Shown here piece by piece: positions 20,431 through 59,478 of a stretch of DNA of 64,000 nucleotides. The first letter of the stretch is position 1; the number at the start of each line of letters is the position of its first letter. Below the pieces are notes generated by a model that did not search any database, was not told where the DNA came from, and saw nothing but the letters and a program-made list of their open reading frames with translations. Source of the stretch: Gammaproteobacteria bacterium. Its GTDB lineage: Bacteria; Pseudomonadota; Gammaproteobacteria; CAJXQU01. The translations under genes were made by a program, and so were the position numbers. The DNA lies in NCBI GenBank assembly GCA_026984775.1, contig JALSRM010000037.1, forward strand, positions 49,604 to 113,603, written 5' to 3'.

Positions 20431-20494
20431 CCATTACTAATATTACTAATTTATAATATATGTTGCATAAAAAATTAGTGAATGCTAATATTAG
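20431..20494. promoter_or_regulatory. Divergent metH/arsR promoter region with direct repeat ATTACTAAT x2, a TATAAT box (20452-20457) and the palindrome CTAATATTAG (20485-20494)
   Basis: Repeats and palindrome read directly from the sequence; the palindrome is the expected ArsR/SmtB-type operator geometry. Confidence 0.4.
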
Positions 20495-20505
20495 AGAAGA
20501 CGAAT

Positions 20506-20802: not shown

Positions 20803-20850
20803 AAACTTATACAAAAGCAGTTACAGAACCCATTAACAAGGAGTAAAGAG

Positions 20851-21057
20851 ATGAACATCGATCGCATGGTTTTTGCAATTGCTGGTACTTTTATACTAGT
20901 CAGTTTAGCCCTTTCACAGCTTCATTCGATCTATTGGTTGTGGTTTACAGCCTTCGTCGGGGCAAACATGTTGCAGGCAGCTTTTACAGGTTTCTGCCCG
21001 CTCGCAAAGATACTGGCTAAGTTGGGTATAAAGTCAGGCTGTGCCTTCCAAGAGTAA
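20851..21057 (+). CDS. DUF2892 (YgaP-like) small inner-membrane protein
   Basis: 68 aa with two TM helices and a conserved C-terminal Cys ([13 protein letters not shown]); this family commonly follows ArsR/BigR-type regulators. Confidence 0.6.
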
Positions 21058-21067
21058 ACGAACATAG

Positions 21068-21868: not shown

Positions 21869-22996
21869 ATGACCAATCCTGACGGGAAAAGGACGGTTCT
21901 TGTAAACCTGATCGGAATCGATCAACGCAACCGGAATGTTATCGAAATGGTCTTCGAACGGGAATTCGACAACTCTTTTTCCCTTGGGAATACAGGTTCA
22001 GCAGATCTGAGTATCGTCGATCTGGACAAATATGGTGCTGAAGAGGAATGGTCAGCACTGCAACAGGCAAAGTCTGATCAGCTTGCGGTTCTCATGTCGA
22101 TAGATGAAAAACACAGGTCGCCAAATCATCTTTTTATCAAAAAACCTGTAACGATTGCTGATCTGGTTACTGCACTCAACAAGGCAAGGAATAAACTCGT
22201 TACAGGGACTTTTACACCGGAAAAAAAACAATACTCTTGGCGAAATATTTTTACTCCTCGTCTCTCAATAAAGAAAAAGAGAAGTACAGGTTCTGAACAC
22301 AAGAAAGAATCAACGAAATCTGATGCCATCAGATACCTTAGTGAGAAAGGTTATCTGATTGATGAAGTCAAAAAAGCCGTATTACTAGCAAATACGGAAG
22401 GCCATGGTATCAAGCTGCAAATTAACAATCAGGGAAGTATTTTTATTGATCCGACTGAACATTGGATCAATACCGATTTAACCCCTGAAGGTTTGAAGGA
22501 CCTGTGCGAGAGACCGATCGAACGCTCAGATTTTATGAAGCGTGTTTTCAGTGATCGGGAGTTTTCGAAGTATCTCGAGGAGTGGCGAGATACTCGTCTG
22601 AAACCAATAGATATAGATGCCTTTCTCTGGGATCTGGCATTGTGGACATATGATGGTGCATTACCTGCGGGTACTGACCTGAAAAAGAAAATCGTTCTCA
22701 GCTACTGGCCTGATCTGCCCCGGTTTACGCCTGTTCCGAATGCCATGCGGATTGCTGCACTTTGGGTTTCATGCCCCATGACCTTGCTTGAGACCAGCGA
22801 GGTACTCAAGATTTCTATGGAAGATGTCATCCGTTTTTACACGGCTGTGTCAAGTCTGGGATTGATCAAGGACGGAAGTCAGAACGAGAATCCCGGTAAT
22901 CAGCCTGAACTGAGTAGAACAACCGTTAGATCAGAGAAAAACAAAAGAGAACTCTATCTCCGTATAATCAAATATCTCAAAGGGCAAAATTCCTGA
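21869..22996 (+). CDS. Hypothetical protein: N-terminal receiver (REC)-like domain plus C-terminal domain of unknown function with an HTH-like end (DUF742-like?)
   Basis: N-terminus resembles CheY-like receivers (hydrophobic strand TVLVNLIG, candidate acceptor Asp in LSIVDLDKYG, conserved K-P in LFIKKPVT); the C-terminus ...TLLETSEVLKISMEDVIRFYTAVSSLGLIKDG resembles a small wHTH; no confident family assignment. Confidence 0.5.
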   Translation: MTNPDGKRTVLVNLIGIDQRNRNVIEMVFEREFDNSFSLGNTGSADLSIVDLDKYGAEEEWSALQQAKSDQLAVLMSIDEKHRSPNHLFIKKPVTIADLVTALNKARNKLVTGTFTPEKKQYSWRNIFTPRLSIKKKRSTGSEHKKESTKSDAIRYLSEKGYLIDEVKKAVLLANTEGHGIKLQINNQGSIFIDPTEHWINTDLTPEGLKDLCERPIERSDFMKRVFSDREFSKYLEEWRDTRLKPIDIDAFLWDLALWTYDGALPAGTDLKKKIVLSYWPDLPRFTPVPNAMRIAALWVSCPMTLLETSEVLKISMEDVIRFYTAVSSLGLIKDGSQNENPGNQPELSRTTVRSEKNKRELYLRIIKYLKGQNS

Positions 22997-22998
22997 TA

Positions 22999-23958
22999 AT
23001 GGAAATAACAAAACAAAAATCGTTGCCCACTGATTCTCATCTCGATGATTACAGAATCCAGAAATGCATTTCAGTTTCAGACGAATTTGTTACCTATCTG
23101 GCCATTGATCAACAGCTGGAATTGCAACTAATTATTACGGAGTACTTTCCTAGTGAAATCGTCTATAGAATGGATAACGGTACTGTTCATGTGAAAGAGC
23201 CGAGGCGAATTGCTGAATTTTTGGATAAGCTCAATGAGCTTCATAAACGAGTTAAAGCGAGGGTGTCTCGAAATGACAAGGGAGTCGACAATGTTATTCG
23301 TTTTCTTTTTTTCAATGGAACTGCTTATGTTGTCTCAAAATACAGTACCCGAACGGATTTGGATCGTTATCTCTCGGAAATGAACCTGACGATCCAAGGT
23401 AGTGAGTTATCGGGGTGTACAGGTAAAGACTCATTATGTCAGAAGGTAACGATCGAAAACAGTATCGTCTTTACTGGTTTTGCACGAGCAGGCAAGTCAA
23501 CAGCGATCAGGTTACTGAGTGACGGTGACATGATCGATAAAGAATCAGGTCTGGCTTATGGGAAACTGGGGACCGGTAGTCTTGAGATCTATTTGTTGGA
23601 ACTGTCCGCTGATCATTTTGAAAACTGTTTGAAAGCTGAACCAATGGGTTACGTCTTGCTGATCGATAACAGCAGAAAGGATCCTTTTAATCACCTTGAT
23701 TATTTTCTTGACAAAATGGACGAACATCGACTGGAAAATGTCGTGATCGGCATCACACATACTGATCAATCCAGGATTCCATCGATCCCTGATTATCATC
23801 TTCATCTTGAAAACAGATCTATCAATTCACGCAGAATATGCCCTATCTTCTCTGTTGATCCACGGAACAGGTCCGATGTGACCATGCTCATCAAGGCACT
23901 TATTTACTCTCATGATCCACTTCTGTCAGACATTTTTTTTGAAGACACGATCCTTTGA
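22999..23958 (+). CDS. Hypothetical P-loop NTPase, small-GTPase-like C-terminal domain with N-terminal domain of unknown function
   Basis: Walker A GFARAGKST; then a hhhhD box (VLLIDNSR) and GITHTD resembling the [N/H/T]KxD G4 motif of MglA/Rag-type GTPases; the start is coupled 3 bp after the upstream stop. Confidence 0.5.
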   Translation: MEITKQKSLPTDSHLDDYRIQKCISVSDEFVTYLAIDQQLELQLIITEYFPSEIVYRMDNGTVHVKEPRRIAEFLDKLNELHKRVKARVSRNDKGVDNVIRFLFFNGTAYVVSKYSTRTDLDRYLSEMNLTIQGSELSGCTGKDSLCQKVTIENSIVFTGFARAGKSTAIRLLSDGDMIDKESGLAYGKLGTGSLEIYLLELSADHFENCLKAEPMGYVLLIDNSRKDPFNHLDYFLDKMDEHRLENVVIGITHTDQSRIPSIPDYHLHLENRSINSRRICPIFSVDPRNRSDVTMLIKALIYSHDPLLSDIFFEDTIL

Positions 23959-24058
23959 AAAATATTTTTCTTCAAAGAGTTAATTCCCGCTGATTGAAGT
24001 AATTTGTTTACCGGCCGATACAGGTTGCGATATGGATTGATTCCGGGGTTTTATTTCC

Positions 24059-24421
24059 ATGCGTGAAGACATGCTTGTTTCGATATTGAATGAATTGAAT
24101 GGATCGACTGTCGACATCCAGGGATCGGCCGTTATTTCTATTGACGGATTATTGATCGCCAGTGCATTACCGACGAGTTTTGACGAAGAAATGGTAAGCG
24201 CAATGACAGCGGCAATGTTGATGCTTGGGGAGAGGACCGCCAGAGAACTACAGCGTGGTGAACTTGAGCAGGTGATTGTCAAGGGCCGTCTGGGTTATGT
24301 GATCATGGTCCGATCTGGTCCGGAATCTGTTCTTTGTGTACTTGCCCGTCCTGATGCCAAATTGGGGCTCGTACTGCTGGATGCAGCACGAGCCGCCGAA
24401 GATATTCCAAAGGTATTATGA
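24059..24421 (+). CDS. Roadblock/LC7 (MglB-like) domain protein
   Basis: 120 aa; IQGSAVISIDGLLIAS...EEMVSAMTAAMLMLGERTA...GYVIMVRSGPESVLCVLARPDAKLGLVLLD fits the Roadblock/LC7 fold pattern closely. Confidence 0.7.
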   Translation: MREDMLVSILNELNGSTVDIQGSAVISIDGLLIASALPTSFDEEMVSAMTAAMLMLGERTARELQRGELEQVIVKGRLGYVIMVRSGPESVLCVLARPDAKLGLVLLDAARAAEDIPKVL

Positions 24422-25832: not shown

Positions 25833-28493
25833 ATGTCATCTAAAAAATCAAGCTGGTTAATCGATTGGGCTGTAGCGAGACCAAGATTTTTTACCTGGTT
25901 GATGGTGTTTTCCACATTTTTACTGATTATACTCGCAGCAGTGCCCAGTATCTGGCCGGAAAAGGTGCCTGCCTTACATAGCATCGAGGTTGATACCGAC
26001 CCGGAAAACATGCTCCCTGCAGATGAACCGGTCCGTCTCTTTCACAATGCTGCAAAGAAAGAATTTTCGCTCAATGACATTGTTGTGGTGGGAATTGTCA
26101 ACGATAAGCATCCAGAAGGTGTTTTCAATCCAGAATCATTACAACGGGTTTATGACCTGACTGAATTCGCAAAAACACTCCAGTGGTCTGATAAAGAAGG
26201 TAAACATGGTGTAGTCGAGATCGATATTATTGCGCCTTCCACGGTGGACAACATTGAGCAGGGAGGCATGGGTGTGGTCAATTTCAGTTGGTTGATGCCT
26301 CGACCACCCAAGACTCAGGAGGAAGCGCTTTCTATCCGTGAAAGAGCCATGAATATTCCTTTTCTGAAGGGAACCATGGTAAGCGAGGATGGCAAGGCAT
26401 TGGCTATCTATTTGCCCTTGGTAAGCAAGCATGATTCCTATGAAGTCCGCAAGGCATTACTGGGTTTTATAAAGGAGTGGGACGGTGATGAGCAGGTACA
26501 TATTACAGGACTACCTGTGGCTGAAGACACCTTCGGTGTCGAAATGTTTACCCAGATGGCAATCTCCGCCCCCCTTGCCATGCTTGTGATTTTTGTACTT
26601 CTGTGGTGGTTCTTCAGAAATTTGACACTGATTGTATCTCCCATGATCGTTGCCATGGTCAGCGCCCTTTCTACCATGGCCTTGCTGGTTATCACGGGTA
26701 ATACGATCCATATCATGAGTTCCATGATACCCATCTTTATCATGCCGATTGCCGTCCTTGACTCAATTCATATTCTCTCGGAGTTTTTTGATCGCTACCC
26801 TCAAATCAGGGATCGCAAGAAGACCATCATTGAGGTCATGAAGCATCTTTTTACACCGATGCTGTTTACCTCCGTGACAACAATGGCGGGTTTTGCGTCA
26901 CTGGCTTTAACTCCGATACCTCCTGTCCAAGTGTTTGGAATATTTGTTGCAATCGGAGTGTTCCTGGCCTGGTTCTGGACCATTGTCTTCATTCCTGCTT
27001 ATGTGATGCTGATGCCGGAGGCAAAGCTTGAAGGGTTTGGTCAATCTGTATCGGATAGTGGAGATACTACAGGCATGGCCAAATTTCTCCATGGACTTGG
27101 AAAATGGACACATGACCATCCTAAAACTGTTCTTGCAGTTACCTTTTTGTGTGTGCTTATTTCTGTCTATGGCATTAGCAGGATCCAGATTAATGATAAT
27201 CCAATCAAGTGGTTTGAGCCGGATCATCCTATCAGAGTCGCAGACAAGATCCTGAACGAACACTTTGGTGGAACCTATATTGCCTATTTGCAATACGAGG
27301 CAGACGATAAAGGACTTTCCGTGGACAGTTACATTACTGAATTGGAGCAACGCCTCGAGCAATGGAAAGCACAGGTATTGGCTGATGAATATGCTCAGGT
27401 GGAGGCTGTCTATACAAAAGCTGTTCAGCTTATGAAAGAAACCCAGGCCGAGTCCATCGAAGATTATCTGTCAAAGCTTCAAGGCAGGGTCAATGATCTC
27501 ATGGATCATGCTTCTGATGAAGAGTACGATACTTGGTCCGAGCTGGCATTATTCTTTGACCGAGAGGATCAAAGAAACGAGGTTTTCAAACAACCCGAGG
27601 TACTTCGATATCTCTCCAGGTTGCAGGACTTTCTTTTGCAGACTGGTGTCGTAGGCAAGGTCAATGCTTTACCCGATATCATCAAAACCGTACATCGTGA
27701 ACTGTTCCTTGGCGATGCTGATCATTTCCGTATTCCGGATAGTGTAAATGGTGTCGCGCAAACTCTGATTACTTATCAAAACAGTCATCGACCTCAGGAT
27801 TTGTGGCATTTCGTCACTCCAGATTACAAGAAAAGTAATCTGATGTTGCAACTCACCAGTGGTGACAACAAGGACATGGAAAAAGTTATTGCGGCAGTAG
27901 CAGATTTCGAAGAACAGAATCCGCCCCCAATGGCCTTGAAATCAAACTGGTTCGGACTTACTTATATCAATGTGATTTGGCAGGATCATATGGTACAAGG
28001 TATGCTGAAATCATTTATGGGCAGTTTCGTCATCGTTCTGTTAATGATGGTGTTCCTGTTCCGTTCAGCCTTGTTTGGTATTCTGTCCATGATCCCTCTG
28101 ACGGTAACGGTTGGCCTTATCTATGGTGTGATTGGCCTGATTGGAAAAGATTACGATATGCCTGTTGCCGTACTCAGCGCATTGAGTCTTGGGCTTGCGA
28201 TCGACTATGCGATTCATTTCCTTGCACGTTCACGGGAGGCTGTACGCGAAACCGGAAATTGGCACAATGCGGTAGATGTTGTCTTTGGTGAACCCGCTCG
28301 TGCGATCACAAGGAATGTGATCATACTTGGAGCTGGTTTTCTGCCATTGCTCGCCGCCCCGCTTGTGCCATATCAGACGGTAGGCTTTTTTATCGCTTCC
28401 ATACTGGTTTGTGCAGGTATTGCAACATTATTGATTTTACCTTCTGCCATGACATTACTTGAGAAGTATCTCTTTAGAGGAGAATTATCATGA
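25833..28493 (+). CDS. MMPL/RND-superfamily transporter (12 TM, two large periplasmic loops; HpnN/MmpL-like exporter)
   Basis: 886 aa with two hydrophobic bundles separated by soluble loops, an architecture typical of RND/MMPL; followed by LolA-like and outer-membrane-barrel genes. Confidence 0.75.
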   Translation: MSSKKSSWLIDWAVARPRFFTWLMVFSTFLLIILAAVPSIWPEKVPALHSIEVDTDPENMLPADEPVRLFHNAAKKEFSLNDIVVVGIVNDKHPEGVFNPESLQRVYDLTEFAKTLQWSDKEGKHGVVEIDIIAPSTVDNIEQGGMGVVNFSWLMPRPPKTQEEALSIRERAMNIPFLKGTMVSEDGKALAIYLPLVSKHDSYEVRKALLGFIKEWDGDEQVHITGLPVAEDTFGVEMFTQMAISAPLAMLVIFVLLWWFFRNLTLIVSPMIVAMVSALSTMALLVITGNTIHIMSSMIPIFIMPIAVLDSIHILSEFFDRYPQIRDRKKTIIEVMKHLFTPMLFTSVTTMAGFASLALTPIPPVQVFGIFVAIGVFLAWFWTIVFIPAYVMLMPEAKLEGFGQSVSDSGDTTGMAKFLHGLGKWTHDHPKTVLAVTFLCVLISVYGISRIQINDNPIKWFEPDHPIRVADKILNEHFGGTYIAYLQYEADDKGLSVDSYITELEQRLEQWKAQVLADEYAQVEAVYTKAVQLMKETQAESIEDYLSKLQGRVNDLMDHASDEEYDTWSELALFFDREDQRNEVFKQPEVLRYLSRLQDFLLQTGVVGKVNALPDIIKTVHRELFLGDADHFRIPDSVNGVAQTLITYQNSHRPQDLWHFVTPDYKKSNLMLQLTSGDNKDMEKVIAAVADFEEQNPPPMALKSNWFGLTYINVIWQDHMVQGMLKSFMGSFVIVLLMMVFLFRSALFGILSMIPLTVTVGLIYGVIGLIGKDYDMPVAVLSALSLGLAIDYAIHFLARSREAVRETGNWHNAVDVVFGEPARAITRNVIILGAGFLPLLAAPLVPYQTVGFFIASILVCAGIATLLILPSAMTLLEKYLFRGELS

Positions 28494-29299
28494 AACGATT
28501 AACAGTACTTTTGATATCACTGTTTTTGGCTGCCTCTGCCATTGCTGCAGATCCCACGATCGAAGAGATCGTGAACAGGGCAAATCTTGCAACTTACTAT
28601 CAAGGAAAGGATGGACGTGCGCATGTGAAAATGACTATTACGGATAGCCAGGGACGAAAACGTATGCGCAAGCTCACCATTCTGCGTTGGGATCAGCCCG
28701 ATACGGATGAGCTTGAAAATGGCGCTTATCGTGGAAAGCAGAAATTCTATGTCTACTTCTCGCGTCCTGCAGATGTCAACAAAATGGTATTCCTCGTTTG
28801 GAAGAATCTAGACAAGGATGACGATCGCTGGTTATATCTCCCAGCGCTTGATCTTGTTAAGCGAATAGCCGCTTCTGACAAACGAACGAGTTTTGTAGGG
28901 TCTGACTTCTTCTATGAAGATGTTTCCGGCCGTGATATTGATGAAGATGAGCATGAGCTGTTGAAGACAACGGATAAATATTTCGTTATCAAGAATACGC
29001 CAAAAGATCCATCTTCCGTTGAGTTTGCCTATTACATGATGTATATCCACAAAAAAACGTTCCTCCCGATCCAGGTGGAATACTACGATGCGCAGGATAA
29101 GAAATATCGTGTCGCTAAGGCATTGAAGGTGGAAAATATCCAAGGTCATCCAACCGTAACCAAGGCAAGTATGGAAAGCCTCAATCAAGGTAGCAAGACT
29201 GTAATGGAATACTCCTCAGTAAAATATGATACAGGGATTCCTGAAGATATTTTTACTGAAAGGTATTTACGAAAACCGCCTAGAAAATATCTTAAATAA
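28490..29299 (+). CDS. Outer-membrane lipoprotein-sorting (LolA-like, DUF1329-type) periplasmic protein
   Basis: Signal peptide MKRLTVLLISLFLAASAIA; 4-bp overlap with the MMPL gene; this family commonly accompanies MMPL transporters. Confidence 0.65.
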   Translation: MKRLTVLLISLFLAASAIAADPTIEEIVNRANLATYYQGKDGRAHVKMTITDSQGRKRMRKLTILRWDQPDTDELENGAYRGKQKFYVYFSRPADVNKMVFLVWKNLDKDDDRWLYLPALDLVKRIAASDKRTSFVGSDFFYEDVSGRDIDEDEHELLKTTDKYFVIKNTPKDPSSVEFAYYMMYIHKKTFLPIQVEYYDAQDKKYRVAKALKVENIQGHPTVTKASMESLNQGSKTVMEYSSVKYDTGIPEDIFTERYLRKPPRKYLK

Positions 29300-29301
29300 C
29301 C

Positions 29302-30798
29302 ATGCGTTTGTTACTTCCTGTTTTACTGATATCTTCTTTTAGCGTTCTGGCCCAGGCCGGAGAGCCAGCCCTCCCTGAAGGTCTTGAAGAGTTTGAGAGT
29401 CCATCTTTGGATGAACCTGCTCTGCCTGAAGGTTTGGCTGACGACTCAGCAGCTTCTGATGAAGCGGAACTGCCAGGAGGTATTGAAAGGGGTAACAAAA
29501 TACCCACTTCAGCTCAAGAACCGGAATTGCCGGAAGGACTTGGCGAAGAGACATTAGTAGAAGAGGGTTTTGAGGCTGGTTCAGATAAGGAGGGTTTTGC
29601 CGATCTCTCCGGATTTTGGGAAGTTCGCCTTGGCACAAGAACTCAGGATGATCGTTTTGAAGACGATCGTTCGATCACAGAAACACGTTTGCAGTTTGAT
29701 CTGGAGCACACTCTGGGCTTATTCAACCTTCACCTGGTGAGTGATCTTGTCTATGATGATCTGGCAGACACTCATGAAATCAAACTGGAAACCGGCCAAG
29801 GCTGGATTGATTTACGTGAGGCTAATCTCTCTTTCACACCAACGAGCTTCATGGATGTGAAGATTGGTCGTCAGATCTTGACCTGGGGCACAGGTGATCT
29901 GCTATTCATCAACGATCTTTTCCCGAAAGACTGGCAGGCTTTTTTCATAGGTCGAGACGTAGAATATCTGAAAGCCCCATCGGATGCCTTTAAACTGGCC
30001 TTTTTCAGTGGTGTGATGAACCTCGACCTTGTCTATACCCCTCGCTTTGATACAGATCGTTTTATCAACGGGAGCAGGATTTCCTATTTCAGTCCACTGG
30101 CAGGTGGTATTGCAGGACAGAATTCGGTGATCGATGCTGTCAATCCTGATAATACATTTACCGATGATGAACTGGCAATTCGTCTGTACAGAAACTTTGG
30201 TGCCATTGAAACAGCTTTTTATGCATACAATGGTTTCTGGAAGAGTCCGGGGGGATTTGATCCACTGACAGGCAAGGCTGTTTTCCCTGATCTGCGTGTC
30301 TATGGTGCGAGTCTGCGGAGTCCTGTAGGGAAGGGTATTGCAAACCTCGAGATAGGATACTATGACTCTAGGATGGACAGGAACGGTACTAATCCATTTA
30401 TAAATAACAGTGAATTTCGACTGTTGATCGGATACGAAAGGGAAATCGCCAAAGAGTTGACCATGGGTCTCCAATATTATCTGGAACGTATCTCCGATTA
30501 CAGTGCCTATGAGGCCAGTCTGCCGTCCGGTTTTCCGACCAGGGATCACAACCGGCACTTGTTTACTTTGCGTCTGACCAAACTGACACATAATCAGAAT
30601 GTGATCTGGTCTGTTTTTGCGTATGCATCTCCATCGGACAAAGATTTCTATCTGCGTCCACACGTGACCTATAAGATCGATGATCATTGGACGATGGAAG
30701 CAGGAGGAAATATTTTTGGTGGTGAACGAGAATATACCTTTTTCGGTCAGTTTCAGGAGAATACCAACCTCTACGCTGCAATACGCTATAGTTTCTGA
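29302..30798 (+). CDS. Outer-membrane beta-barrel protein (DUF1302-like) with N-terminal Pro/Glu-rich ALPEGL repeats
   Basis: Signal peptide; repeats (E)PALPEGL x4; alternating amphipathic beta-strand pattern; C-terminal ...AAIRYSF ending in Phe, the outer-membrane-protein signature. Confidence 0.6.
   Translation: MRLLLPVLLISSFSVLAQAGEPALPEGLEEFESPSLDEPALPEGLADDSAASDEAELPGGIERGNKIPTSAQEPELPEGLGEETLVEEGFEAGSDKEGFADLSGFWEVRLGTRTQDDRFEDDRSITETRLQFDLEHTLGLFNLHLVSDLVYDDLADTHEIKLETGQGWIDLREANLSFTPTSFMDVKIGRQILTWGTGDLLFINDLFPKDWQAFFIGRDVEYLKAPSDAFKLAFFSGVMNLDLVYTPRFDTDRFINGSRISYFSPLAGGIAGQNSVIDAVNPDNTFTDDELAIRLYRNFGAIETAFYAYNGFWKSPGGFDPLTGKAVFPDLRVYGASLRSPVGKGIANLEIGYYDSRMDRNGTNPFINNSEFRLLIGYEREIAKELTMGLQYYLERISDYSAYEASLPSGFPTRDHNRHLFTLRLTKLTHNQNVIWSVFAYASPSDKDFYLRPHVTYKIDDHWTMEAGGNIFGGEREYTFFGQFQENTNLYAAIRYSF
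29355..29560 (+). repeat. Four imperfect tandem copies of a 30-60-nt unit encoding [PE]-[AE]-LPEGL inside the outer-membrane-protein gene
   Basis: gccctccctgaaggtctt / gctctgcctgaaggtttg / gaactgccaggaggtatt / gaattgccggaaggactt seen directly in the sequence. Confidence 0.6.
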
Positions 30799-36783: not shown

Positions 36784-37502
36784 GACAAATCGTACTGGAT
36801 ACAGAAACAACAGGGCTTTCCACTGCGGAAGGTCATCGAATCATTGAAATTGGTTGTGTCGAAATGATCAACCGCAAAATGACAGGGAAGTATTATCACC
36901 AATATATCTGCCCTGATCGGGAGGTGGACGAAGGTGCACTTGAAGTCCACGGGATAACCAATGAATTTCTCAGTAATAAGCCACGATTCGGTGAGATCGT
37001 CGAGGATTTCATTGAGTTTGTTCAAGGTGCCGAGTTGATTATCCATAATGCACCATTTGATATTGGCTTCCTTGATTATGAGCTTTCTCTACTGAGTCTT
37101 GACAGGAAAATAGAGGATCTTTGTAGCATTCTAGATACTTTGGCTCTCGCACGAGAACTCCATCCGGGACAAAAAAATAGTCTTGACGCGCTGTGTAAAC
37201 GCTACGATGTCAATAATGCTCAAAGGGAATTGCATGGTGCCTTGCTCGATGCAGAGATATTGGCCGATGTCTATTTGAGAATGACAGGGGGCCAGGCCGA
37301 TCTGCTATTTGTTAGTCATGAGCCTACGGAGTCCATAAACCAGAAAAAAGCAACGCACGAAACGAAGCAACGACCTCCACTCAAAGTGGTCAAACCCCAT
37401 GATCATGAACTCGCCTTACATCAGAAACAGCTTGAACTTCTGGACAAAGTTTCTGGGAGTGAGTGTCTCTGGAAGAAACTGGAGAGTGAAATCAGGGAAT
37501 GA
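36780..37502 (+). CDS. dnaQ: DNA polymerase III epsilon subunit (3'-5' exonuclease)
   Basis: Exo I motif VLDTETTGL and Exo [17 protein letters not shown]; ATGA overlap with rnhA. Confidence 0.9.
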
Positions 37503-37842
37503 TTTCTTGATATTTTGATTCGTCAAAACCAACCAGAAGCTGGCCTTCACCCACCAGTACCGGTCGTTTGATCAATGCCGGGTAAGTGAGCATCAGGATT
37601 CTGGCTTTGGCTTCATCGAGATCGGCGCGTTCAGTTTTAGGTAATTTCCGCCAGGTTGTTCCCCGCCTATTTAATAACAGTGTCCAACCCACTTTGGCGA
37701 TCCATGATTCTAGCGTTTTTTCGTCCAATCCTTGTTTGTGAAAATCATGGAAGGTGTAGTCGATAGAATGTCCGGAAAGCCATTTTCGGGCTTTCCGGAC
37801 AGTATCGCAATTACTTATCCCGTAAAGCTTCAGATCAGACAT
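37492..37842 (-). CDS. ArsC-family reductase (YffB/Spx-like)
   Basis: [22 protein letters not shown]...[10 protein letters not shown] aligns closely with E. coli YffB. Confidence 0.75.
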
Positions 37843-38656
37843 CCCGCAACAACTCATTGATCCCGACCTTACCTAAGGTTTTCTCATCAACCTGCTTAAC
37901 GATAACTGCGCAGTAAAGACTGTATGCACCGTCGTTTGAGGGAAGGTTGCCTGAAACGACGACGGAACCAGGTGGAATATATCCATACGTAATTTCACCG
38001 GTTTCACGGTTATATATACGTGTACTCTGGCCAATATAGACCCCCATGGATATGACAGAGCCACGTCCTACGATGACACCCTCGACCACCTCGGATCGGG
38101 CGCCGATGAAACAGTTGTCTTCAATAATGGTGGGCCCGGCCTGAATCGGTTCCAGCACTCCTCCAATTCCAACACCACCCGACAAGTGGACGTTTTTACC
38201 AATCTGTGCGCAGGAACCAACGGTTACCCACGTATCTACCATGGTTCCACTGTCCACGTAAGCACCGATATTAACGTAGCTGGGCATCAGTACAGTGTTT
38301 GGTGCGATATAACTCCCTCGGCGGGCGGTGGCAGCAGGAACAACACGAACGCCACTGGCCTTGAAGTCTTCCTCGCTATAGTCCGAAAATTTTGACGGCA
38401 CTTTGTCATAGAACTTTGTATAGCCACCTTCAATGACTTCGTTTTCCCGAACACGGAAAGAAAGCAGAACCGCTTTTTTCAGCCATTGATTTGTGTACCA
38501 TTCATCACCTTTTTTTTCTGCAACCCGGTAAGTACCTGCATCGAGTCCAGCGATGCATTCTTCAATTGCGTCTTTTAGTTCTTGAGTGGCTGATGCCGGT
38601 GTGATTTCGGAGATGTGTTCGAAATTTTCTTCAATTATTTTTTCTAGTTGTTCCAT
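37835..38656 (-). CDS. dapD: 2,3,4,5-tetrahydropyridine-2,6-dicarboxylate N-succinyltransferase
   Basis: 273 aa with a left-handed beta-helix hexapeptide repeat region and a DapD-like N-terminus. Confidence 0.9.
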
Positions 38657-50156: not shown

Positions 50157-50651
50157 TCAGGTTTTGCGGCCCCGATAGATGAGGTTGGAACGTTTCTTTC
50201 TTCCGCTCTTTTTATTCAAGGTGGATGCAGTGGATACTTTTTGTCCCCGATAGGTCAGATCGGGCGATGCAGGCGCTTGGTATTCGTCTGTTGGTTTGTC
50301 CTCTAGTTTCAGCATTTTCATCGCCAGATTGGTGACCAACTTTAGAGAGACGAAGTTGACCCCCGCATCGCCCAGTACAGCGAGAATGAAATCCATATCT
50401 TCCTTGCGGTGACTTTTTCTGAAATAGAGGTTTTTTTTGTCAAATTTGAGAATGAAGTCCGAACAATTTTGAAAGTTGTCTGCGATGACATCGTACATCA
50501 TCAGAATACGCTGAGGGAGTTTCTGTAGCATGGCTTGATCCGTGTATTGTGGCATCTGTTCAAAATAGACCTCGCCTTCGAGATCAAAGACCAATAGGCC
50601 TTCTACTTTGGGCGTATCAAGGATGGCATCAATGGTTTTTTGAAAGCTCAT
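50157..50651 (-). CDS. Roadblock/LC7-like domain protein with Lys/Arg-rich C-terminal tail
   Basis: VEGLLVFDLEGEVY...DFILAVLGDAGVNFVSLKLV fits the Roadblock-like pattern; 4-bp overlap with the upstream gene; tail KKSGRKKRSNLIYRGRKT. Confidence 0.45.
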   Translation of the reverse strand: MSFQKTIDAILDTPKVEGLLVFDLEGEVYFEQMPQYTDQAMLQKLPQRILMMYDVIADNFQNCSDFILKFDKKNLYFRKSHRKEDMDFILAVLGDAGVNFVSLKLVTNLAMKMLKLEDKPTDEYQAPASPDLTYRGQKVSTASTLNKKSGRKKRSNLIYRGRKT

Positions 50652-51019
50652 GATTTCGCCGTTTTATACTTGGCCAGGAATTCGTTAGGGTTAGTGTCTT
50701 TATCGAAAAGGATGCCTACGGTTTCCTTTCTCCCGGGCATACAGACTGCGGTCAGCTCGTCACAGACGATGTGGATCTCATCCAGTTTCTCCAGGCCAAA
50801 AGTCTCTCCGATCAGTTCGGTGATTTGGTTGAAGTAGATGAGGACTTCACCAAACCGTTCAGCAATTTCGTCCGAGGCGACGTTTTGCGTGCCGTCATTA
50901 CGGATTGCGACCCAGCCCTGAATCGCAGGGTGGGAAAGTAACTGACTTTTGGTCTCATTTTTATTGATATTTTGAACTTTACTCATGCTGTCAGCATAAA
51001 CCTTATTCGTCTGTGACAC
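50648..51019 (-). CDS. Roadblock/LC7-like domain protein
   Basis: [19 protein letters not shown]...[40 protein letters not shown] fits the Roadblock/LC7 pattern; 17-bp overlap with the ilvD 3' end. Confidence 0.5.
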
Positions 51020-52697: not shown

Positions 52698-52770
52698 TTC
52701 ATTATTGTGAAAACCGGCAGGATACTATAAGCCTGTTGAAATTTCAGTTTTTCGAATACACTGTGCAACC

Positions 52771-53724
52771 ATGCATGATACTCTGCCTTTTTTGAAAACT
52801 ACCGACTTCCCTACCATCCGCCGCGGGATGCTCGAGTCCTTGCAGGTCAATCTGGGCTATCGCTGTAACCAGACTTGCCTACACTGTCACGTCAACGCAG
52901 GCCCAAGAAGGACGGAAATGATGTCCCGCAAAACGGTCGATGCGATCATCGATTTTTTGCGACGTGGAAGGATCCAAACCCTGGACCTGACAGGGGGGGC
53001 TCCTGAAATGAACCGGTATTTCCGTGATCTTGTAACTGCAGCAAGGGAAATGGACATCACCATTATCGACCGCTGCAATCTGACCATCCTCCTGGAACCG
53101 GGGTATGAGTCCCTCGCCGTGTTTCTGGCGGAAAATGGTGTTGAGATCAATGCCTCCTTGCCCTGTTACCTGGAAGAAAATGTGGATCGGCAAAGGGGAG
53201 ATGGTGTTTTTACCACAAGTATTCGGGCGATCAGAAGGCTCAACGAACTGGGGTATGGCCATCCTGGAACGGATCTCAGGTTGAATCTTGTCTACAACCC
53301 CCAAGGCCCGACCTTGCCGCCATCCCAGAACTCACTCGAGACAGCTTATCGACAACACCTGCTTGATAACTACGGTATTCATTTCAATCAATTACTCGTT
53401 ATCACCAATATGCCCATCCAGCGCTTCGGTAGTACCCTGATCAGCAAAGGTCAGTTCGAATCCTACATGCAACTGTTGCGAGAAAACCACAAAGAGGAAA
53501 ATTTACAGTCTGTGATGTGTCGCAGCCTGTTGAGTGTGGACTGGCAGGGCTACGTCTATGATTGTGACTTCAACCAAATGCTGAAGATCCCGATGCCGCA
53601 CGGGAAACGTCATATCAGTGAAATCAAGGTCGAAGAGACAGAAGGTATGCCAATCACAGTCCTTGATCACTGCTATGCCTGCACGGCCGGACAGGGCAGC
53701 AGCTGTGGAGGTGCCCTGGATTAG
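52771..53724 (+). CDS. arsS: Arsenosugar biosynthesis radical SAM protein (TIGR04167 radical SAM/Cys-rich domain)
   Basis: CxxxCxxC (CNQTCLHC) radical SAM motif near the N-terminus; C-terminal Cys-rich tail (CDFNQ..., HCYACTAGQGSSCGG); followed by arsM and the two signature glycosyltransferases. Confidence 0.8.
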   Translation: MHDTLPFLKTTDFPTIRRGMLESLQVNLGYRCNQTCLHCHVNAGPRRTEMMSRKTVDAIIDFLRRGRIQTLDLTGGAPEMNRYFRDLVTAAREMDITIIDRCNLTILLEPGYESLAVFLAENGVEINASLPCYLEENVDRQRGDGVFTTSIRAIRRLNELGYGHPGTDLRLNLVYNPQGPTLPPSQNSLETAYRQHLLDNYGIHFNQLLVITNMPIQRFGSTLISKGQFESYMQLLRENHKEENLQSVMCRSLLSVDWQGYVYDCDFNQMLKIPMPHGKRHISEIKVEETEGMPITVLDHCYACTAGQGSSCGGALD

Positions 53725-53736
53725 AAAAAGGAAAAA

Positions 53737-54867
53737 GTGATAAATATGAATAAAGAAGCAAGTGTACTTGAGCGTTATTCCGAGGGTGCGCAGGAACAGC
53801 AACCGGAACTTTGTTGCCCGGTGGATTATGACCGATCGTTGTTAGCTCTCCTGCCGCAAGAGATCATTGAAAAGGATTATGGCTGCGGAGATCCCTCCCG
53901 CTATGTGAAAGAAGGGGACGTGGTGCTCGATCTAGGCTCAGGATCGGGCAAGATCTGCTATATGGCGGCTCAACTCACCGGTGAGGCCGGACGAGTCATC
54001 GGCGTCGATATGAATGATGACATGCTTGACCTGGCACGCAAGTACAAACCGGAAATGGCAAAGAAGCTGGGATCTGATCGGGTTGAGTTCCTCAAAGGAC
54101 AGATCCAGGATCTGGCACTGGACTTGACCGCGACAGAGGCGTACCTGGCTAATCATCCGGTGACCGATTTCCGCAGTCTTAGCGAGTTTAAAGCCTGGCA
54201 GGAGAAACAGAGAAGAGAAAAACCATTGATCCCATCGGATTCTATCGATCTTGTGGTTTCCAACTGTGTGCTCAACTTGGTGGATGATCAAGAGAAACAG
54301 CAGATGATCGAGGAAATTTTCAGGGTGACAAAACCAGGTGGCCGAATCGCCATCTCAGACATCGTCAGCGACGAACCCAGCCCGGAGAGCATGAAAACTG
54401 ATCCCGAACTTTGGAGTGGCTGTATTTCCGGAGCCATGACCGAGCAGGCGTTTTTGCAGGCCTTTATCGATGCCGGTTTCGCTGCCGTCAAACTGGATAA
54501 GTGGGGTAATGAACCTTGGCGGACGGTTGAGGGCATCGAATTCCGTGCGGTAACGGTGACGGCTTGCAAGCCAGAAAACAGCAAATGCCTGGACTATGGC
54601 CATGCCGTGGTCTACCGTGGACCCTTCCGTGAGGTGCATGATGACGAAGGGCATGTCTTCCCTCGTGGTGAACGCATTGCCGTCTGTGAACGAAGTTACC
54701 GGCTGTTGATGGGTGGTTTCTATGCGGATCAGTTCATTGGTATCGCCCCTAGAAAGCAATCTTCACCACGCGCCTGGTGTCATCCTTCAGGCACACGTCG
54801 ATCACCTGCAGAAACAAAGGGTGGTCGTCATGAAGGTAGTACCAGTGATGCATCATGTTGTTGAGCC
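53737..54867 (+). CDS. arsM: Arsenite S-adenosylmethionine methyltransferase
   Basis: SAM motif VLDLGSGSGK; conserved Cys pairs (ELCCPVDYD, YGCGDP, SGC); the C-terminal 40 aa look unusual (possible length variation). Confidence 0.75.
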
Positions 54868-54878
54868 TGGTCTGAAAC

Positions 54879-55580
54879 ATGCTAATCGAGGGTCCTGAAC
54901 TTTCCATCATTCTCCCGGTATGGAATGAAGAACCGTTGATCGGAGCGTGCCTGTTCAGACTGCAATCGCTCCGCAAACGGGGCGTGGAGATCGTTGTTGC
55001 CGACGGGGGCAGCAGCGACAGAACGGTCTCTCTCGCCGAGCCGCTCTGTGATCATCTGGTTTGCTCGACGAAGGGACGCGCCACACAGATGAATACCGGG
55101 GCAAGGGTGGCAACCGGCCGTATTCTGCTTTTTCTGCATGTGGATACGGAACTCCCTGCCAATGCCTATGAGGAGATCCTTTCTGCCATGGAGTTACCGC
55201 ATCTTTGGGGGCGGTTTGATGTGAAGCTCACCGGTTCGCATTTCATGTTCCGGTTCATTGAACACATGATGAATCTGCGATCCGGTCTGACTGGGATCGC
55301 GACGGGTGATCAGGCCATTTTTGTCACCAGGGCCGCCTTTGAGCAGGTGGGTGGATTCCCTGATCAGCCATTGATGGAAGATATTGAGATAAGCCGAAGG
55401 TTGAAAAAATTGGCGTTCCCGGTCAGTCTCAAATCGCGAGTGATCACCTCCAGTCGCCGTTGGGAAGAGAATGGCATCTATACAACTGTTCTGTTGATGT
55501 GGTGGTTGCGTTTTCTCTATTTCATAGGGGCACACCCGCGGGTGCTGCATAAGATGTACGAAAAAAAGGCTCAGGCTTGA
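54879..55580 (+). CDS. Family-2 glycosyltransferase of the rSAM/ArsS-associated type (TIGR04283-like)
   Basis: GT-A fold N-terminus LSIILPVWNEE...VVADGGSSDRT; DxD-like VDTE; position in the arsS cluster. Confidence 0.7.
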   Translation: MLIEGPELSIILPVWNEEPLIGACLFRLQSLRKRGVEIVVADGGSSDRTVSLAEPLCDHLVCSTKGRATQMNTGARVATGRILLFLHVDTELPANAYEEILSAMELPHLWGRFDVKLTGSHFMFRFIEHMMNLRSGLTGIATGDQAIFVTRAAFEQVGGFPDQPLMEDIEISRRLKKLAFPVSLKSRVITSSRRWEENGIYTTVLLMWWLRFLYFIGAHPRVLHKMYEKKAQA

Positions 55581-55593
55581 GAGAGGATTCCCT

Positions 55594-56382
55594 ATGGATA
55601 TGAGCTATCGCCTAGGTGCTTTTCTCGGCATGTTTTTCATTATCGCCCTATGGGAATTCCTCAGCCCACGGCGAGATGAAGATCAGCAACGTAGCCGGCG
55701 CTGGCCGGTGAATCTTGGATTGGTGACCTTGAATTCGATTCTAGTCAGGTTTACGGTCGGCGGGTTGATCTATCAAAGTGCCCTGTTAGCCCAACAAAAT
55801 CATATCGGCCTATTGAACTGGGCTGGAAGCGGCAGTGGCTGGAATTTGGTCATGACTTTGATCATGCTCGATCTCACCATCTATGGCCAGCATGTTGCTT
55901 CTCACAAAATCCCCTTGCTGTGGAAATTGCATCAGGTACACCACACGGATCCTGTTTACGACACGACCACTGGTGTTCGTTTTCACCCACTGGAGATCTT
56001 TTTCTCCTTGGGAGTGAAGGTGGTGGCTGTGTTTTTGATTGGAGCGGATCCATTCGCAGTGATCCTGTTTGAAGTGATTTTGAACACCAGCGCTGTCTTC
56101 AATCATGGCAATATCGCGCTTCCTCTTCATGTGGATCGTTATCTGAGAAAAATCGTCGTGACGCCTGACATGCACCGTGTGCATCACTCGGTCTATCGAG
56201 AGGAGACCGACAGCAATTACGGGTTCGCGCTTTCCGTTTGGGATCGGCTGTTTGGAACATATCGCGATCAGCCCCGTGACGGGCATGAGAAAATGCGTAT
56301 TGGTTTACCTTATGCCAGAGGGAAAGAGGCTATCACCCTGTCAGGTGTCATCACCATGCCCCTGCACTATCCACCCAAATGA
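55594..56382 (+). CDS. Fatty acid hydroxylase / sterol desaturase superfamily membrane protein
   Basis: Histidine boxes HVASHK, HQVHHTD, HRVHHS within TM-rich protein. Confidence 0.75.
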   Translation: MDMSYRLGAFLGMFFIIALWEFLSPRRDEDQQRSRRWPVNLGLVTLNSILVRFTVGGLIYQSALLAQQNHIGLLNWAGSGSGWNLVMTLIMLDLTIYGQHVASHKIPLLWKLHQVHHTDPVYDTTTGVRFHPLEIFFSLGVKVVAVFLIGADPFAVILFEVILNTSAVFNHGNIALPLHVDRYLRKIVVTPDMHRVHHSVYREETDSNYGFALSVWDRLFGTYRDQPRDGHEKMRIGLPYARGKEAITLSGVITMPLHYPPK

Positions 56383-56999
56383 GGTATCCAGACTCACGGA
56401 TACTGATCTTTTGCAAGGCACCGGTTCCCGGCAAGGTCAAAACCCGGCTTTTGGAAACACTCCGCCCGGAACAGGCCACTCGACTGCATGAACACCTTGC
56501 CATAAAAACTATCGAAACCGCCATTGGCAGTGAACTCTGTCCTGTGGAGATCTGGTGTCACCCCAACCCTGATCATCCTTTTTTCCAGAACCTCTCCGGG
56601 GTTTCAGCGTTCTACGCACAAGAAGGGGAAAATCTGGGTGAACGTATGTATGGCGCCTTGGTTTCCGTACTGGAGCGAGCTGATGCGGCAGTTCTCATCG
56701 GTACCGATTCACCTTCATTGACACAAGGGCTTTTGATGCAGGCATTGGCAGCACTCCATGCCGATCATGATCTCGTCATCGCTCCGGCAGAAGATGGTGG
56801 TTATACTCTCATTGGTATGAAGCAACCTGTTCAGTCATTATTTGAAGATCTCCAGTGGGGTACAGCTAAAGTCATGGAACAGACTCGGGAGAGAATCATG
56901 AAGGCTGGTCTCTCATACCTTGTACTCCCATTGCAGTGGGACGTAGATGATCCACATGACCTTCGACGTCTGATTGACCTTGGCGAGTTTTCGATTTAA
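56379..56999 (+). CDS. DUF2064 glycosyltransferase-like protein of the rSAM/ArsS-associated type (TIGR04282-like)
   Basis: ILIFCKAPVPGKVKTRL N-terminus typical of DUF2064; 4-bp overlap with the hydroxylase gene. Confidence 0.7.
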   Translation: MRYPDSRILIFCKAPVPGKVKTRLLETLRPEQATRLHEHLAIKTIETAIGSELCPVEIWCHPNPDHPFFQNLSGVSAFYAQEGENLGERMYGALVSVLERADAAVLIGTDSPSLTQGLLMQALAALHADHDLVIAPAEDGGYTLIGMKQPVQSLFEDLQWGTAKVMEQTRERIMKAGLSYLVLPLQWDVDDPHDLRRLIDLGEFSI

Positions 57000-57347: not shown

Positions 57348-58546
57348 GTGGTATGTGAATTGATCAGCATCAAAACTGGCCCATTGAGCTATGTCCATGG
57401 AAAATTAACAATAAGATGTCAGGATATCAAAGATATTGAATCATCATGGCGATTGCTGGAGGACCAGGAGGGTATCTCTGTCTATCAGTTTTGGGACTGG
57501 TATCTTGCTTGGTATCAGGACCTTGCTGTTCCAAGGATAGCGCAAGGAATTTTTCACCGGTTTTAATAACAGTCTTTGATGCAGAACAAACGGTTGCTGT
57601 TTTCCCTTTCTGCCTTCGGATTTGTAAAGGAATACGTATGCTTTCTTGGATGGCAGATAATCATTTAATTATATAGAACCTTTACTTGAATCGAGAAAGA
57701 TTTCTCTTACTTTGGAATAAAATCGAACAATTGATACCCGAGTATCATGTACTCTGGTTACAGAATCAGCGGACAGAGATCTTTGGACTGACCACACCAT
57801 TTCAATGAATTGGGAATCTACCATCAGCTAACTCAAGTCACTTACTTGTATTTGAGGAACATAACTGGGATGAGTTGCTAAAGTCTTTGCGCAGAAAATC
57901 GACACGAAAAAGGATGCGAAATGAAGAAAATCGTCTCAAAAGGCAAGGGAATTTGATGTGGAGATTTATTGATCAACCAGACGAGCTTACCCATAATCTC
58001 AATATACTTTTCACTCAAAGAGAGGAACGATTCAAGGGTCTCGGGATAAATGTTGAAAAAGAGATCAGGCAATACAGAAGATTTTACGAAGGCTTGCTTA
58101 GAAAATCGATTGATGAAAAAAAACAATACTTTATCCCTCATGGTGATTGAACTGGATAACGTGGTATTGGCGACATTGTTGATTGGAGAAAAGAATGGTG
58201 TTATTTATCCGTTGATCAATTCCATGATGAGTTCTGTGACCATCGTTGGTCAGCTGGCGATTATCTTCTGCGTTTATTGATCCAGGAGGCGTGCCGACGG
58301 AAAATAAAGCATATCGACTTTGTTCTGAGTGAAGACCATAATTACAAGACTGCGTGGTGTAACAGTCGGATCGATATTTTTGAAACAATTCACGCCAATG
58401 GCTTGATTGGGAAGTTGGCGGTCTTTCTGATCAAAAATAAAATCAGACTAAAAAGAAAAATCAAACAGTCACCTAAGATGTGGAAAGCCTACGCTATACT
58501 CAGAGCCAGATTATCAAGCTGGAATAACATGAATGCAAAAAGATAG
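57348..58546 (+). pseudogene. Frameshifted/fragmented CelD/BioF2-like GNAT acetyltransferase (Acetyltransf_6 family) pseudogene
   Basis: Pieces in three frames: SWRLLEDQEGISVYQFWDWYLAWYQDL (N-terminus), ITVFDAEQTVAVFPF, RKRMRNEENRLKRQGNLMWRFIDQPDEL...FYEGL, LDNVVLATLLIGEKNGVIYPL, and IQEACRRKIKHIDFVLSEDHNYKTAWCNSRIDIF; these match consecutive conserved blocks of the family but are interrupted by stops and frameshifts and a gap at 57677-57874. Confidence 0.5.
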
Positions 58547-58796
58547 AGTGTTCAAAAACTGGACGTATAAATATACATCAGACTTTCTCCATGGACTTAT
58601 GGTAGCCGGGCATAATCTCTGTTCACTCGATATCTTTTCCGATCAAAAACTTGAGAAACTTATTGAATTACATCCAGATTCCTTGTCCATGGTTTATGCC
58701 ATGCCTGACAAAGTGAGTACTTAGGATAGTTTCCGTGAGGGTGACTTAAGGAGGACACAAGGCAAGGATTTAATTACAGCCGTTGGGGAAGGGCGG

Positions 58797-59478
58797 TTGT
58801 GGGTACAACTACTGAAACTCAATTCGATTCATCCCGAGTTCAAAGAGCTCAAAAAACAGATCGTCTCTGAACTCAAGACAAATATCCCTGGGCTGAAAAT
58901 TTTCGGTTGCCGTCTTTCATTATTAATTTCATCGCCACAGATCCATGTTGGATATCATGCTGATATTCCTCGTAATGCACTGTGGCAGATCAGGGGGTGA
59001 TAAGAGAGTTTATGTCTAGCCTGTTGAAGAGAAGTATATCTCGACAATAGATCTCGGAGGTGTCTATCTAGGAGAAACCCAGGATGTTATCCAATACAGT
59101 CCCGAACTTGATCAAGATGCAACCGAGATCCATCTCAGGACAGGAATGATGGTGACGTGGCCAATCAATGCACCCCACCGTGTTGAGAATACAAGTGAGA
59201 TCAGTATTTCATTGGTGATGGAATATTTTGAACCTGTCGCCTGGTATCGCTATGCTGTTTATTACACCAACGGAATCATGCGACGCCGATTTAGTTTGGC
59301 ACTTAAATCGATAAGGACATCAGGTCCTGTGTTGTGGATGAAAGCGATCTCAAGTGTGAGCTTTAAATTATCCAAAATACAGAAAAAACATCAACACAGA
59401 CGATATCTAACTTTCCGAATCGATCCTCAATCCGAATTTGGCTATTCGGATATCCCAAAGACTGTCAAGGATTACTGA
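58797..59478 (+). pseudogene. Fragmented aspartyl/asparaginyl beta-hydroxylase-like (cupin/2OG oxygenase) gene remnant
   Basis: Two ORF fragments (58797..59000 with HVGYHADIP; 59146..59478 with MVTWPINAPHRVENTSEISISLVMEY) resemble the HxD...H and C-terminal blocks of Asp beta-hydroxylase-family proteins but are separated by stops. Confidence 0.35.

Follow-up and report, generated by a model that had tools for sequence, protein, structure and literature searches.

A five-gene cluster predicted to make arsenosugar-type organoarsenicals in a gammaproteobacterium

Introduction

A 64,000-nucleotide stretch of gammaproteobacterial DNA (contig JALSRM010000037.1 of assembly GCA_026984775.1, positions 49,604 to 113,603; here called the window) carries at 52771-56999 an operon of five genes, encoding the radical S-adenosylmethionine (SAM) enzyme ArsS, an ArsM-like methyltransferase, a family-2 glycosyltransferase (GT2), a membrane di-iron hydroxylase and a DUF2064 protein. 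The chances are slightly better than even (about 0.55) that this operon makes arsenosugar-type organoarsenicals (5-deoxy-5-dimethylarsinoyl-ribosides) from arsenite. Among the major arsenic species in marine food webs are arsenosugars and arsenosugar lipids. To our knowledge, ArsM and ArsS, and these only from a cyanobacterium, are the sole arsenosugar enzymes known, and we know of no established route by which the arseno-ribose is moved from adenine to aglycones.

The cluster is not a new system, since curated annotation has already given ‘arsenosugar biosynthesis’ names to three of its five genes and public data contain many clusters like it. New, by comparison with curated knowledge, are an unnamed clade of ArsM as the partner of ArsS, a recurrent hydroxylase and a proposal for the late steps. 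The window provides a compact five-gene version of a widespread proteobacterial system, with functions predicted here from the genes, and the comparison of about 160 related loci leads to a testable order of reactions: phosphorylase, nucleotidyltransferase, glycosyltransferase. If the assignment is correct, the makers of complex organoarsenicals extend beyond the phototrophs, and genes for producing arsenosugar standards are in hand. If the more tentative reading of the late steps and of a glycerolipid product also holds, then arsenosugar lipids would also be made, so far unrecognised, by non-photosynthetic Proteobacteria that are probably sulfur oxidisers.

Organization of the cluster

The five open reading frames (ORFs) are co-directional on the + strand, at the coordinates given by a first-pass annotation of this DNA. 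ArsS (52771-53724, 317 residues) is followed by the methyltransferase (53746-54864, 372 residues), the GT2 protein (54879-55580, 233 residues), the hydroxylase (55594-56382, 262 residues) and the DUF2064 protein (56379-56999, 206 residues). The intergenic gaps are 21, 14 and 13 nt, the first being taken from the methyltransferase ATG, and the hydroxylase and DUF2064 genes overlap by 4 nt (ATGA). The most likely methyltransferase start is this ATG at 53746, because it gives 372 residues, as in the homologues and in the public gene call; an alternative GTG at 53737 would give 375 residues.

The same five-gene order is found beside ilvD in three related contigs (L005, L006 and L007) and also in two unrelated metagenome contigs (L103 and L106), where reductase and VTT genes come first. 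This recurrence shows that the arrangement is not due to chance. In the window, ilvD lies upstream of the cluster on the opposite strand. The G+C content of the cluster is 51.3%, compared with 46.7% for the window as a whole, and is inside the window's range. An identical sequence is present in contig JBPMPJ010000005.1 (metagenome-assembled genome GCA_054024145.1) and in two other assemblies.

A 20-nt block, CTGTTGAAATTTCAGTTTTT (52733-52752, +), which lies 19-38 nt before the arsS start codon, aligns across the window, L005 and L006 within a conserved stretch of 20-30 nt and contains a perfect 10-bp palindrome, TGAAATTTCA. The block occurs once in the window, against 0.03 occurrences expected by chance, and in the full set of loci retrieved its only occurrences are ahead of arsS in this lineage. 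It may be the promoter or an operator of the operon. Counts from the promoter and terminator scans were not above those for shuffled sequence, and this applies also to the terminator-like sites inside the cluster. No riboswitch or other known RNA was found in or near the cluster, the sole match being to Chlorobi-1 (22 bits against a cut-off of 50) within a pseudogene.

ArsS is a member of the TIGR04167 family

The radical SAM/Cys-rich protein recognised in the first-pass annotation is a bona fide member of TIGR04167, scoring 458.5 bits against a cut-off of 300, with residues 16-316 spanning profile positions 2-303. Both the Radical_SAM model (PF04055) and the C-terminal Cys-rich DUF3641 model (PF12345, 190.3 bits) match. 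The segment CNQTCLHC reads as a CX3CX2C motif at C32/C36/C39, and further cysteines lie in the C-terminal part at C250, C265, C301, C304 and C312; of these, C301-x2-C304...C312 aligns with the tail of cyanobacterial ArsS. Identity is 44% (E = 1e-88) with a cyanobacterial ArsS named by PGAP, and 60-63% with the ArsS proteins encoded on plasmids of Burkholderia, Thiodictyon and Cupriavidus. A search of solved structures gave only YydG (E about 1e-5).

ArsS adds the 5'-deoxyadenosyl radical to dimethylarsenite (DMAs(III)) to give 5'-deoxy-5'-dimethylarsinoyl-adenosine (DDMAA) (PMC13598754), and in Synechocystis, where arsS is co-transcribed with arsM, this is the first committed step (bioRxiv 10.1101/2022.09.23.509062; PMC8552651). 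Equivalog membership suggests that the window's ArsS would likewise adenosylate DMAs(III) to DDMAA, a reaction known from cyanobacterial ArsS only.

The public gene call begins ArsS at 52918, giving a protein of 268 residues in which the CX3CX2C motif is cut off (52771-52917). Read from 52771, the 317-residue ORF spans the TIGR04167 profile in full, and its relatives are called at 317-322 residues. An AGGA just ahead of the internal ATG probably misled the public gene caller.

The methyltransferase belongs to a separate ArsM-like clade

To judge from its motifs and relatives, the second gene encodes an ArsM-like methyltransferase of a separate, widespread ‘long-insert’ clade that curated annotation has left unnamed. 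Its best models are all ArsM types, it carries the SAM-binding motif DLGSGSG, and its matches to solved structures include CmArsM and other ArsM chains (E = 2e-36). The segments YGCG, SNCV and GC.SGA align with C72, C174 and C224 of CmArsM, and four cysteines, C23/24, C47, C174 and C226 in the 372-residue numbering, are invariant in an alignment with three annotated ArsM types, the Pseudomonas amygdali arsinothricin ArsM, the Pseudanabaena arsenosugar ArsM and a Staphylococcus aureus plasmid protein. The spacing of these cysteines (24, 127 and 52 residues) is that of BgArsM C30/54/181/233 (PMC8552651).

Identity is 48% to the S. aureus plasmid protein, 39-40% to arsinothricin ArsM and 27-30% to cyanobacterial arsenosugar ArsM, and an insertion of some 37 residues common to the window protein, the S. 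aureus protein and arsinothricin ArsM is absent from the cyanobacterial enzyme. Among the top 120 database homologues, identity is 66-77% and length 369-379 residues; at JGI, members of the clade are labelled ‘arsenite methyltransferase’ or ‘UbiE’. The first-pass annotation had remarked on an odd C-terminal tail of 40 residues and had allowed for a frameshift. The tail is indeed unusual, but it is conserved in 14 diverse homologues (W-C-x3-G-T-x-R-x3-E-T-K-G-G...C-C, with C345 and the terminal CC invariant) and also aligns in the syntenic relatives of L005-L007. A frameshift is therefore ruled out and the tail is a feature of the family.

The gene neighbourhoods of the clade point to arsenic. 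On S. aureus pSA159, the 48%-identical member lies in an arsR-permease-methyltransferase unit beside arsRBC, and the arsinothricin arsQ-arsL-arsM cluster carries a relative that is 40% identical. Methyltransferases of the clade adjoin ArsS in 26 of the 46 loci with enough flanking sequence. No assayed member of the clade was found in the literature searched.

The glycosyltransferase, DUF2064 protein and hydroxylase

The two transferases were assigned by the first-pass annotation to the ArsS-associated families and this is borne out, so that all three TIGRFAM profiles (04167, 04282 and 04283) score above their cut-offs in the cluster. The GT2 protein, whose gene lies in the operon some 1.2 kb downstream of arsS, scores 263.1 bits with TIGR04283 (cut-off 182) and also matches PF00535; a search of solved structures returned weak, generic GT2 matches only. 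The DUF2064 protein scores 194 bits with TIGR04282 (cut-off 134) and 101.5 with PF09837 (cut-off 25.8). It matches the CofC model PF01983 at 26.7 bits, falls below the cut-off of the CofC equivalog TIGR03552 (45.6 against 105) and matches a structural-genomics protein, PDB 3CGX, with E = 2.4e-23. In our reading, its N-terminal K-x-P-x-P-G-x-V-K-T-R-L may correspond to a nucleotidyltransferase phosphate-binding loop, which it resembles. We know of no DUF2064 protein with a known substrate.

The fourth protein was correctly recognised as a histidine-box hydroxylase of the fatty-acid hydroxylase/sterol desaturase family. It scores 95.2 bits with PF04116 (cut-off 31) and has hydrophobic segments and three intact histidine boxes, H100-x3-H104 (HVASH), H113-x2-HH117 (HQVHH) and H194-x2-HH198 (HRVHH). 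Its sole curated NCBIfam match is to the OlsE equivalog NF052566, where a score of 78.6 against a cut-off of 475 means that it is not an OlsE orthologue, and no solved structure matched.

A modular system in Proteobacteria

An ArsS-centred scan of species-representative genomes yielded at least 597 loci; the best 80 of these, which were examined, are almost all labelled Proteobacteria or Pseudomonadota and have ArsS proteins 58-67% identical to that of the window. A methyltransferase-centred scan of metagenome contigs added 80 further loci. Neighbours were counted by tblastn in loci flanked on each side by 1.2 kb or more, 66 of them ArsS-centred and 46 methyltransferase-centred. Around ArsS, homologues of the GT2 and DUF2064 proteins are the most frequent neighbours (50 and 45 of the 66 loci, respectively), followed by a MerA-like flavoprotein disulfide reductase (39) and a VTT/DedA-domain protein (36), with the hydroxylase in four. 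Around the methyltransferase, ArsS is found in 26 of the 46 loci, the reductase in 23, the VTT/DedA protein in 19, GT2 and DUF2064 homologues in 14 each and the hydroxylase in ten, and only two loci have none of these partners. From these neighbour counts and the architectures shared across loci, seven families make up one modular system, and five of them are present in the window.

The reductase and VTT proteins, often fused into one protein of about 713 residues, are neighbours of ArsS or of the methyltransferase in about half of the loci. Examples occur in loci L009-L170 (such as L070, 11338-13476; L142, 3264-4955; L160, 2049-2762) and in L171 (5539-7957). A Pseudanabaena plasmid, as annotated by PGAP, has ArsR and then TVP38/VTT, ‘mercuric reductase’, arsM of the arsenosugar type, TVP38 and arsS. 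The VTT-reductase pair thus belongs to a kind of locus for which arsenosugar synthesis has been demonstrated.

A further recurrent partner is a paralog of methylthioadenosine (MTA) phosphorylase, which six unrelated proteobacterial loci have directly next to ArsS or to TIGR04283. In a Burkholderia thailandensis plasmid (L175), a gene annotated as S-methyl-5'-thioadenosine phosphorylase adjoins TIGR04283, and in the other five (L019, L029, L048, L058 and L063) homologues of 46-62% identity are directly beside ArsS. This placement suggests that DDMAA is handled like methylthioadenosine.

Two families of proteins of about 340-360 residues with no Pfam or NCBIfam match also recur beside proteobacterial ArsS, one of them directly after ArsS in 17 loci (examples are L175, 8996-10015; L081, 3755-4810; and about 17-32 others). 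DUF3047, DUF547 and an extracytoplasmic function (ECF) sigma factor recur near proteobacterial ArsS as well. None of these is present in the window.

A proposed pathway

The pathway would begin with methylation of As(III) to dimethylarsenite by the ArsM-like methyltransferase, as its motifs and clade context suggest, after which ArsS would cleave SAM and form DDMAA by addition of the 5'-deoxyadenosyl radical to DMAs(III). DDMAA is a 5'-substituted 5'-deoxyadenosine and an analogue of methylthioadenosine, so phosphorolysis would be expected to give an arseno-ribose-1-phosphate. An MTA phosphorylase would accordingly cleave DDMAA to 5-dimethylarsinoyl-ribose-1-phosphate, and since the window has no homologue of this enzyme, a housekeeping one would have to serve. 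The CofC-like DUF2064 protein could then activate the arseno-ribose-1-phosphate with a nucleotide to form a nucleoside diphosphate sugar (NDP-sugar), from which the GT2 protein would move the arseno-ribosyl group to an acceptor such as glycerol, a glycerophosphate or a glycerolipid; these three steps are suggested by gene neighbourhoods and fold families. In the last and weakest step, the membrane di-iron hydroxylase might modify the lipid acceptor or the lipid-linked product.

A broader proposal is that the cluster, together with the linked MTA phosphorylase paralogs, DedA/VTT proteins and MerA-like reductases, encodes the missing late steps of arsenosugar synthesis, the GT2 product being a membrane glycerolipid that is modified by the hydroxylase. 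This is put forward tentatively and, taken as a whole, is rather doubtful. A search of the literature for arsM in combination with a sterol desaturase gave nothing relevant.

Evidence against the pathway and alternative explanations

A number of observations weigh against arsenosugar synthesis by this operon. The methyltransferase passes no NCBIfam cut-off for ArsM: its best match, NF040538 (arsinothricin type), scores 358.7 against 500, whilst NF008823 (general ArsM) scores 188.1 against 263 and NF038099 (arsenosugar-type ArsM) 122.5 against 400. The original naming of this gene as ArsM is supported by its four cysteines and its solved-structure match but not by any of the three ArsM-specific profiles. 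The label of the clade at NCBI is ‘methyltransferase domain-containing protein’ only. A methyltransferase of the window type is a neighbour in just five of the 66 ArsS-centred loci, and hence ArsS in Proteobacteria need not depend on it. Neither an arsenic-responsive regulator nor an efflux gene adjoins the cluster. The first-pass description of the cluster as complete went too far, given that the steps past DDMAA are uncharacterised and that three families of related loci have no homologue in the window: tblastn gave no match in the 64 kb to VTT or MerA-like reductase proteins at E = 1e-10 or to MTA phosphorylase at E = 1e-6. In the literature searched, no mention of DUF2064 was found, nor anything that would give MTA phosphorylase a part in making arsenosugars, and the roles suggested for the GT2, DUF2064 and hydroxylase proteins are drawn from association and fold family only.

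The nature of the end product depends on how the hydroxylase is viewed. The same core pathway might stop at a soluble compound, DDMAA or a simple arsenosugar, with the hydroxylase a recruited or passenger housekeeping lipid enzyme and no arsenolipid made. Outside the lineage, the nearest relatives of the hydroxylase (51-55% identity) are stand-alone genes in all three genomes sampled, beside lnt in Methylicorpusculum and after lysC-csrA in two metagenome-assembled genomes, which makes the earlier claim that the hydroxylase implies an arsenolipid a speculative one. The idea that the cluster-linked hydroxylases form a clade of their own was rejected, since linked and stand-alone copies intermix in a neighbour-joining tree, although this tree, having no support values and only three stand-alone sequences, is weak evidence. 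A passenger role would also fit with the small share of loci that have the hydroxylase at all, noted above, and with a best curated match to an ornithine-lipid hydroxylase that is far under its cut-off. Against this, the hydroxylase (FAH in the following gene orders, with MT for the methyltransferase) occurs with these genes in at least five orders when listed by family, across L103, L106, a Thiodictyon plasmid and other loci: GT2-FAH-DUF2064, FAH-MT, FAH-VTT-reductase-MT, FAH-VTT-reductase-ArsS-MT and GT2-FAH-ArsS. The FAH-MT pairs include some without ArsS. In the window its gene overlaps that for DUF2064, in L005-L007 hydroxylases of 57-68% identity keep the same position, and the system takes in another membrane-lipid-related family, the DedA/VTT proteins. 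A soluble product is considered unlikely, and an arsenolipid is possible.

Two other alternatives concern the chemistry itself, and both seem improbable. The order of the early steps could be reversed, with ArsS making the C-As bond on As(III) or methylarsenite (MAs(III)) and methylation of the adenosyl-arsenical following. This is how arsinothricin is made, the radical SAM step preceding methylation (PMC8552651), and it is to arsinothricin-type ArsM, by identity, by the shared insertion and by the NF040538 match, that the window's methyltransferase is closer than to the cyanobacterial arsenosugar enzyme. However, DMAs(III) is the only ArsS substrate documented in the sources read (PMC13598754; bioRxiv 10.1101/2022.09.23.509062), BgArsM is described by its authors as a typical As(III) methyltransferase (PMC8552651), and the S. 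aureus member of the clade lies in an ars operon without a radical SAM partner, an argument that inorganic or methyl arsenite can serve as substrate for the clade. It is also conceivable, with a similarly low probability, that the cluster is not directed at arsenic but at another metalloid (Se, Sb or Te) or at a non-arsenical glycoconjugate derived from 5'-deoxyadenosyl. TIGR04167 is defined as a radical SAM (seleno)protein family, 61 of the 66 proteobacterial ArsS loci have no adjacent ArsM-like gene and have DedA/VTT and MerA-like reductase, DUF3047 and DUF547 instead, and ars resistance genes do not flank the cluster in the window. Here too there is contrary evidence, in that a methyltransferase with ArsM signatures directly follows ArsS in the window, members of its clade are embedded in ars operons and, in cyanobacteria, the homologous module has ArsR and pst genes beside it. 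Synthesis of an arsenosugar-type compound from arsenite, with methylation first, is thus the reading that we prefer.

Genomic context

The first-pass annotation noted an ArsC-family YffB and an ArsR-family regulator in the same DNA, with no arsB or acr3. Both genes are present, and neither ArsB nor Acr3 is found among the Pfam-annotated genes of the window, but a functional tie of the two genes to the cluster is rejected. YffB (37492-37857, -) follows dapD and is 15 kb from the cluster. The ArsR-family gene (20482-20802), in a metH context 32 kb away, is BigR-like (102 against a cut-off of 155) and passes only the generic metalloregulator model. Within 20482-21628, this BigR-like ArsR/SmtB regulator is divergent from metH, and next after it comes a Tll0287-like protein that has a CxxCH haem motif, a context more in keeping with the sensing of sulfide or sulfite than of arsenic.

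The sulfur-oxidiser context proposed earlier is not seen in the gene content: the annotation of the window includes no sox, dsr or apr gene, and a 424-residue flavoprotein is only weakly like sulfide:quinone oxidoreductase (SQR; 108 against 525). A search with CysS gave close matches to uncultured Gammaproteobacteria, the nearest named relatives, at about 70%, being Thioalkalivibrio, Ectothiorhodospira, Thiohalobacter, Sulfurivermis and Chromatiaceae. As these are sulfur oxidisers, such a lifestyle is plausible by relatedness.

Directly downstream of the cluster (57413-59475, +) lie decayed counterparts of an Acetyltransf_6-like and a Cupin_8/JmjC-like gene, the pair that comes next after the cluster in L007. 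By tblastn, the former is 44% identical over 333 residues and the latter 59% and 50% in two frames. Each has several in-frame stops, the Cupin_8/JmjC-like gene is frameshifted near 58997, G+C falls to 40%, and the same fragments are present in three independent assemblies. In L005 and L006, an EamA/DMT transporter is found in their place.

Elsewhere in the window, four conserved proteins of 375, 319, 164 and 123 residues (in 21869-24421 and 50157-51019) have no family match. The two larger adjoin a Roadblock/LC7 protein, the 319-residue one having a P-loop-like GFARAGKST, and the two smaller stay between an SLT gene and ilvD in L005-L007. A block of three genes at 25833-30798 (+), for an MMPL/RND-type transporter, a TP_0789/LolA-like protein and a DUF1302-like outer-membrane protein, may form a system for lipid export; no tie to the arsenic cluster was seen.

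Comparison with known systems

The cyanobacterial arsM-arsS locus (Synechocystis sp. PCC 6803; Pseudanabaena galeata pPg_02) resembles the window cluster in having a TIGR04167 ArsS that adjoins a four-cysteine ArsM-type methyltransferase. The two ArsS proteins, at 44% identity, share the CX3CX2C motif and a C-terminal HC..CTAG.GSSC motif. In contrast, the methyltransferase of the window is only 27-30% identical to its cyanobacterial counterpart, with the insertion of about 37 residues and a longer, Cys-containing tail. The window adds the GT2, hydroxylase and DUF2064 genes and is without TVP38/VTT, mercuric-reductase-like genes or ArsR at the cluster.

The arsinothricin arsQ-arsL-arsM cluster (Burkholderia gladioli GSRB05; a Pseudomonas amygdali plasmid) shares with the window a long-insert ArsM of identical cysteine spacing, paired with a radical SAM enzyme that makes a C-As bond. 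However, the partner in the window is a canonical ArsS, which would use the 5'-deoxyadenosyl group, whereas ArsL is non-canonical and transfers a 3-amino-3-carboxypropyl group. The methyltransferase, at only 39-40% identity, is under the arsinothricin equivalog cut-off, and the window has no ArsQ exporter or ArsN.

A third known system is the proteobacterial trio of ArsS, TIGR04283 and TIGR04282, as in Candidatus Thiodictyon syntrophicum pTs417 and Burkholderia plasmids, where the same three families occur and ArsS is 60-63% identical. On pTs417, a sterol-desaturase-family gene lies inside the cluster, in the order GT2-FAH-arsS-TIGR04282. The trio loci differ from the window in that they mostly lack the methyltransferase (present in 5 of 66) and often carry VTT/DedA and MerA-like reductase genes, DUF547, DUF3047 or an MTA phosphorylase paralog; the window has none of these.

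The DUF2064 protein matches models of CofC/FbiD, the 2-phospho-L-lactate guanylyltransferase of F420 synthesis, far under the equivalog cut-off. The hydroxylase shares with OlsE, of the PF04116 superfamily, the eight-histidine di-iron motif and the membrane topology, but at 78.6 bits against 475 it stands well apart from OlsE, and it has no relative of solved structure.

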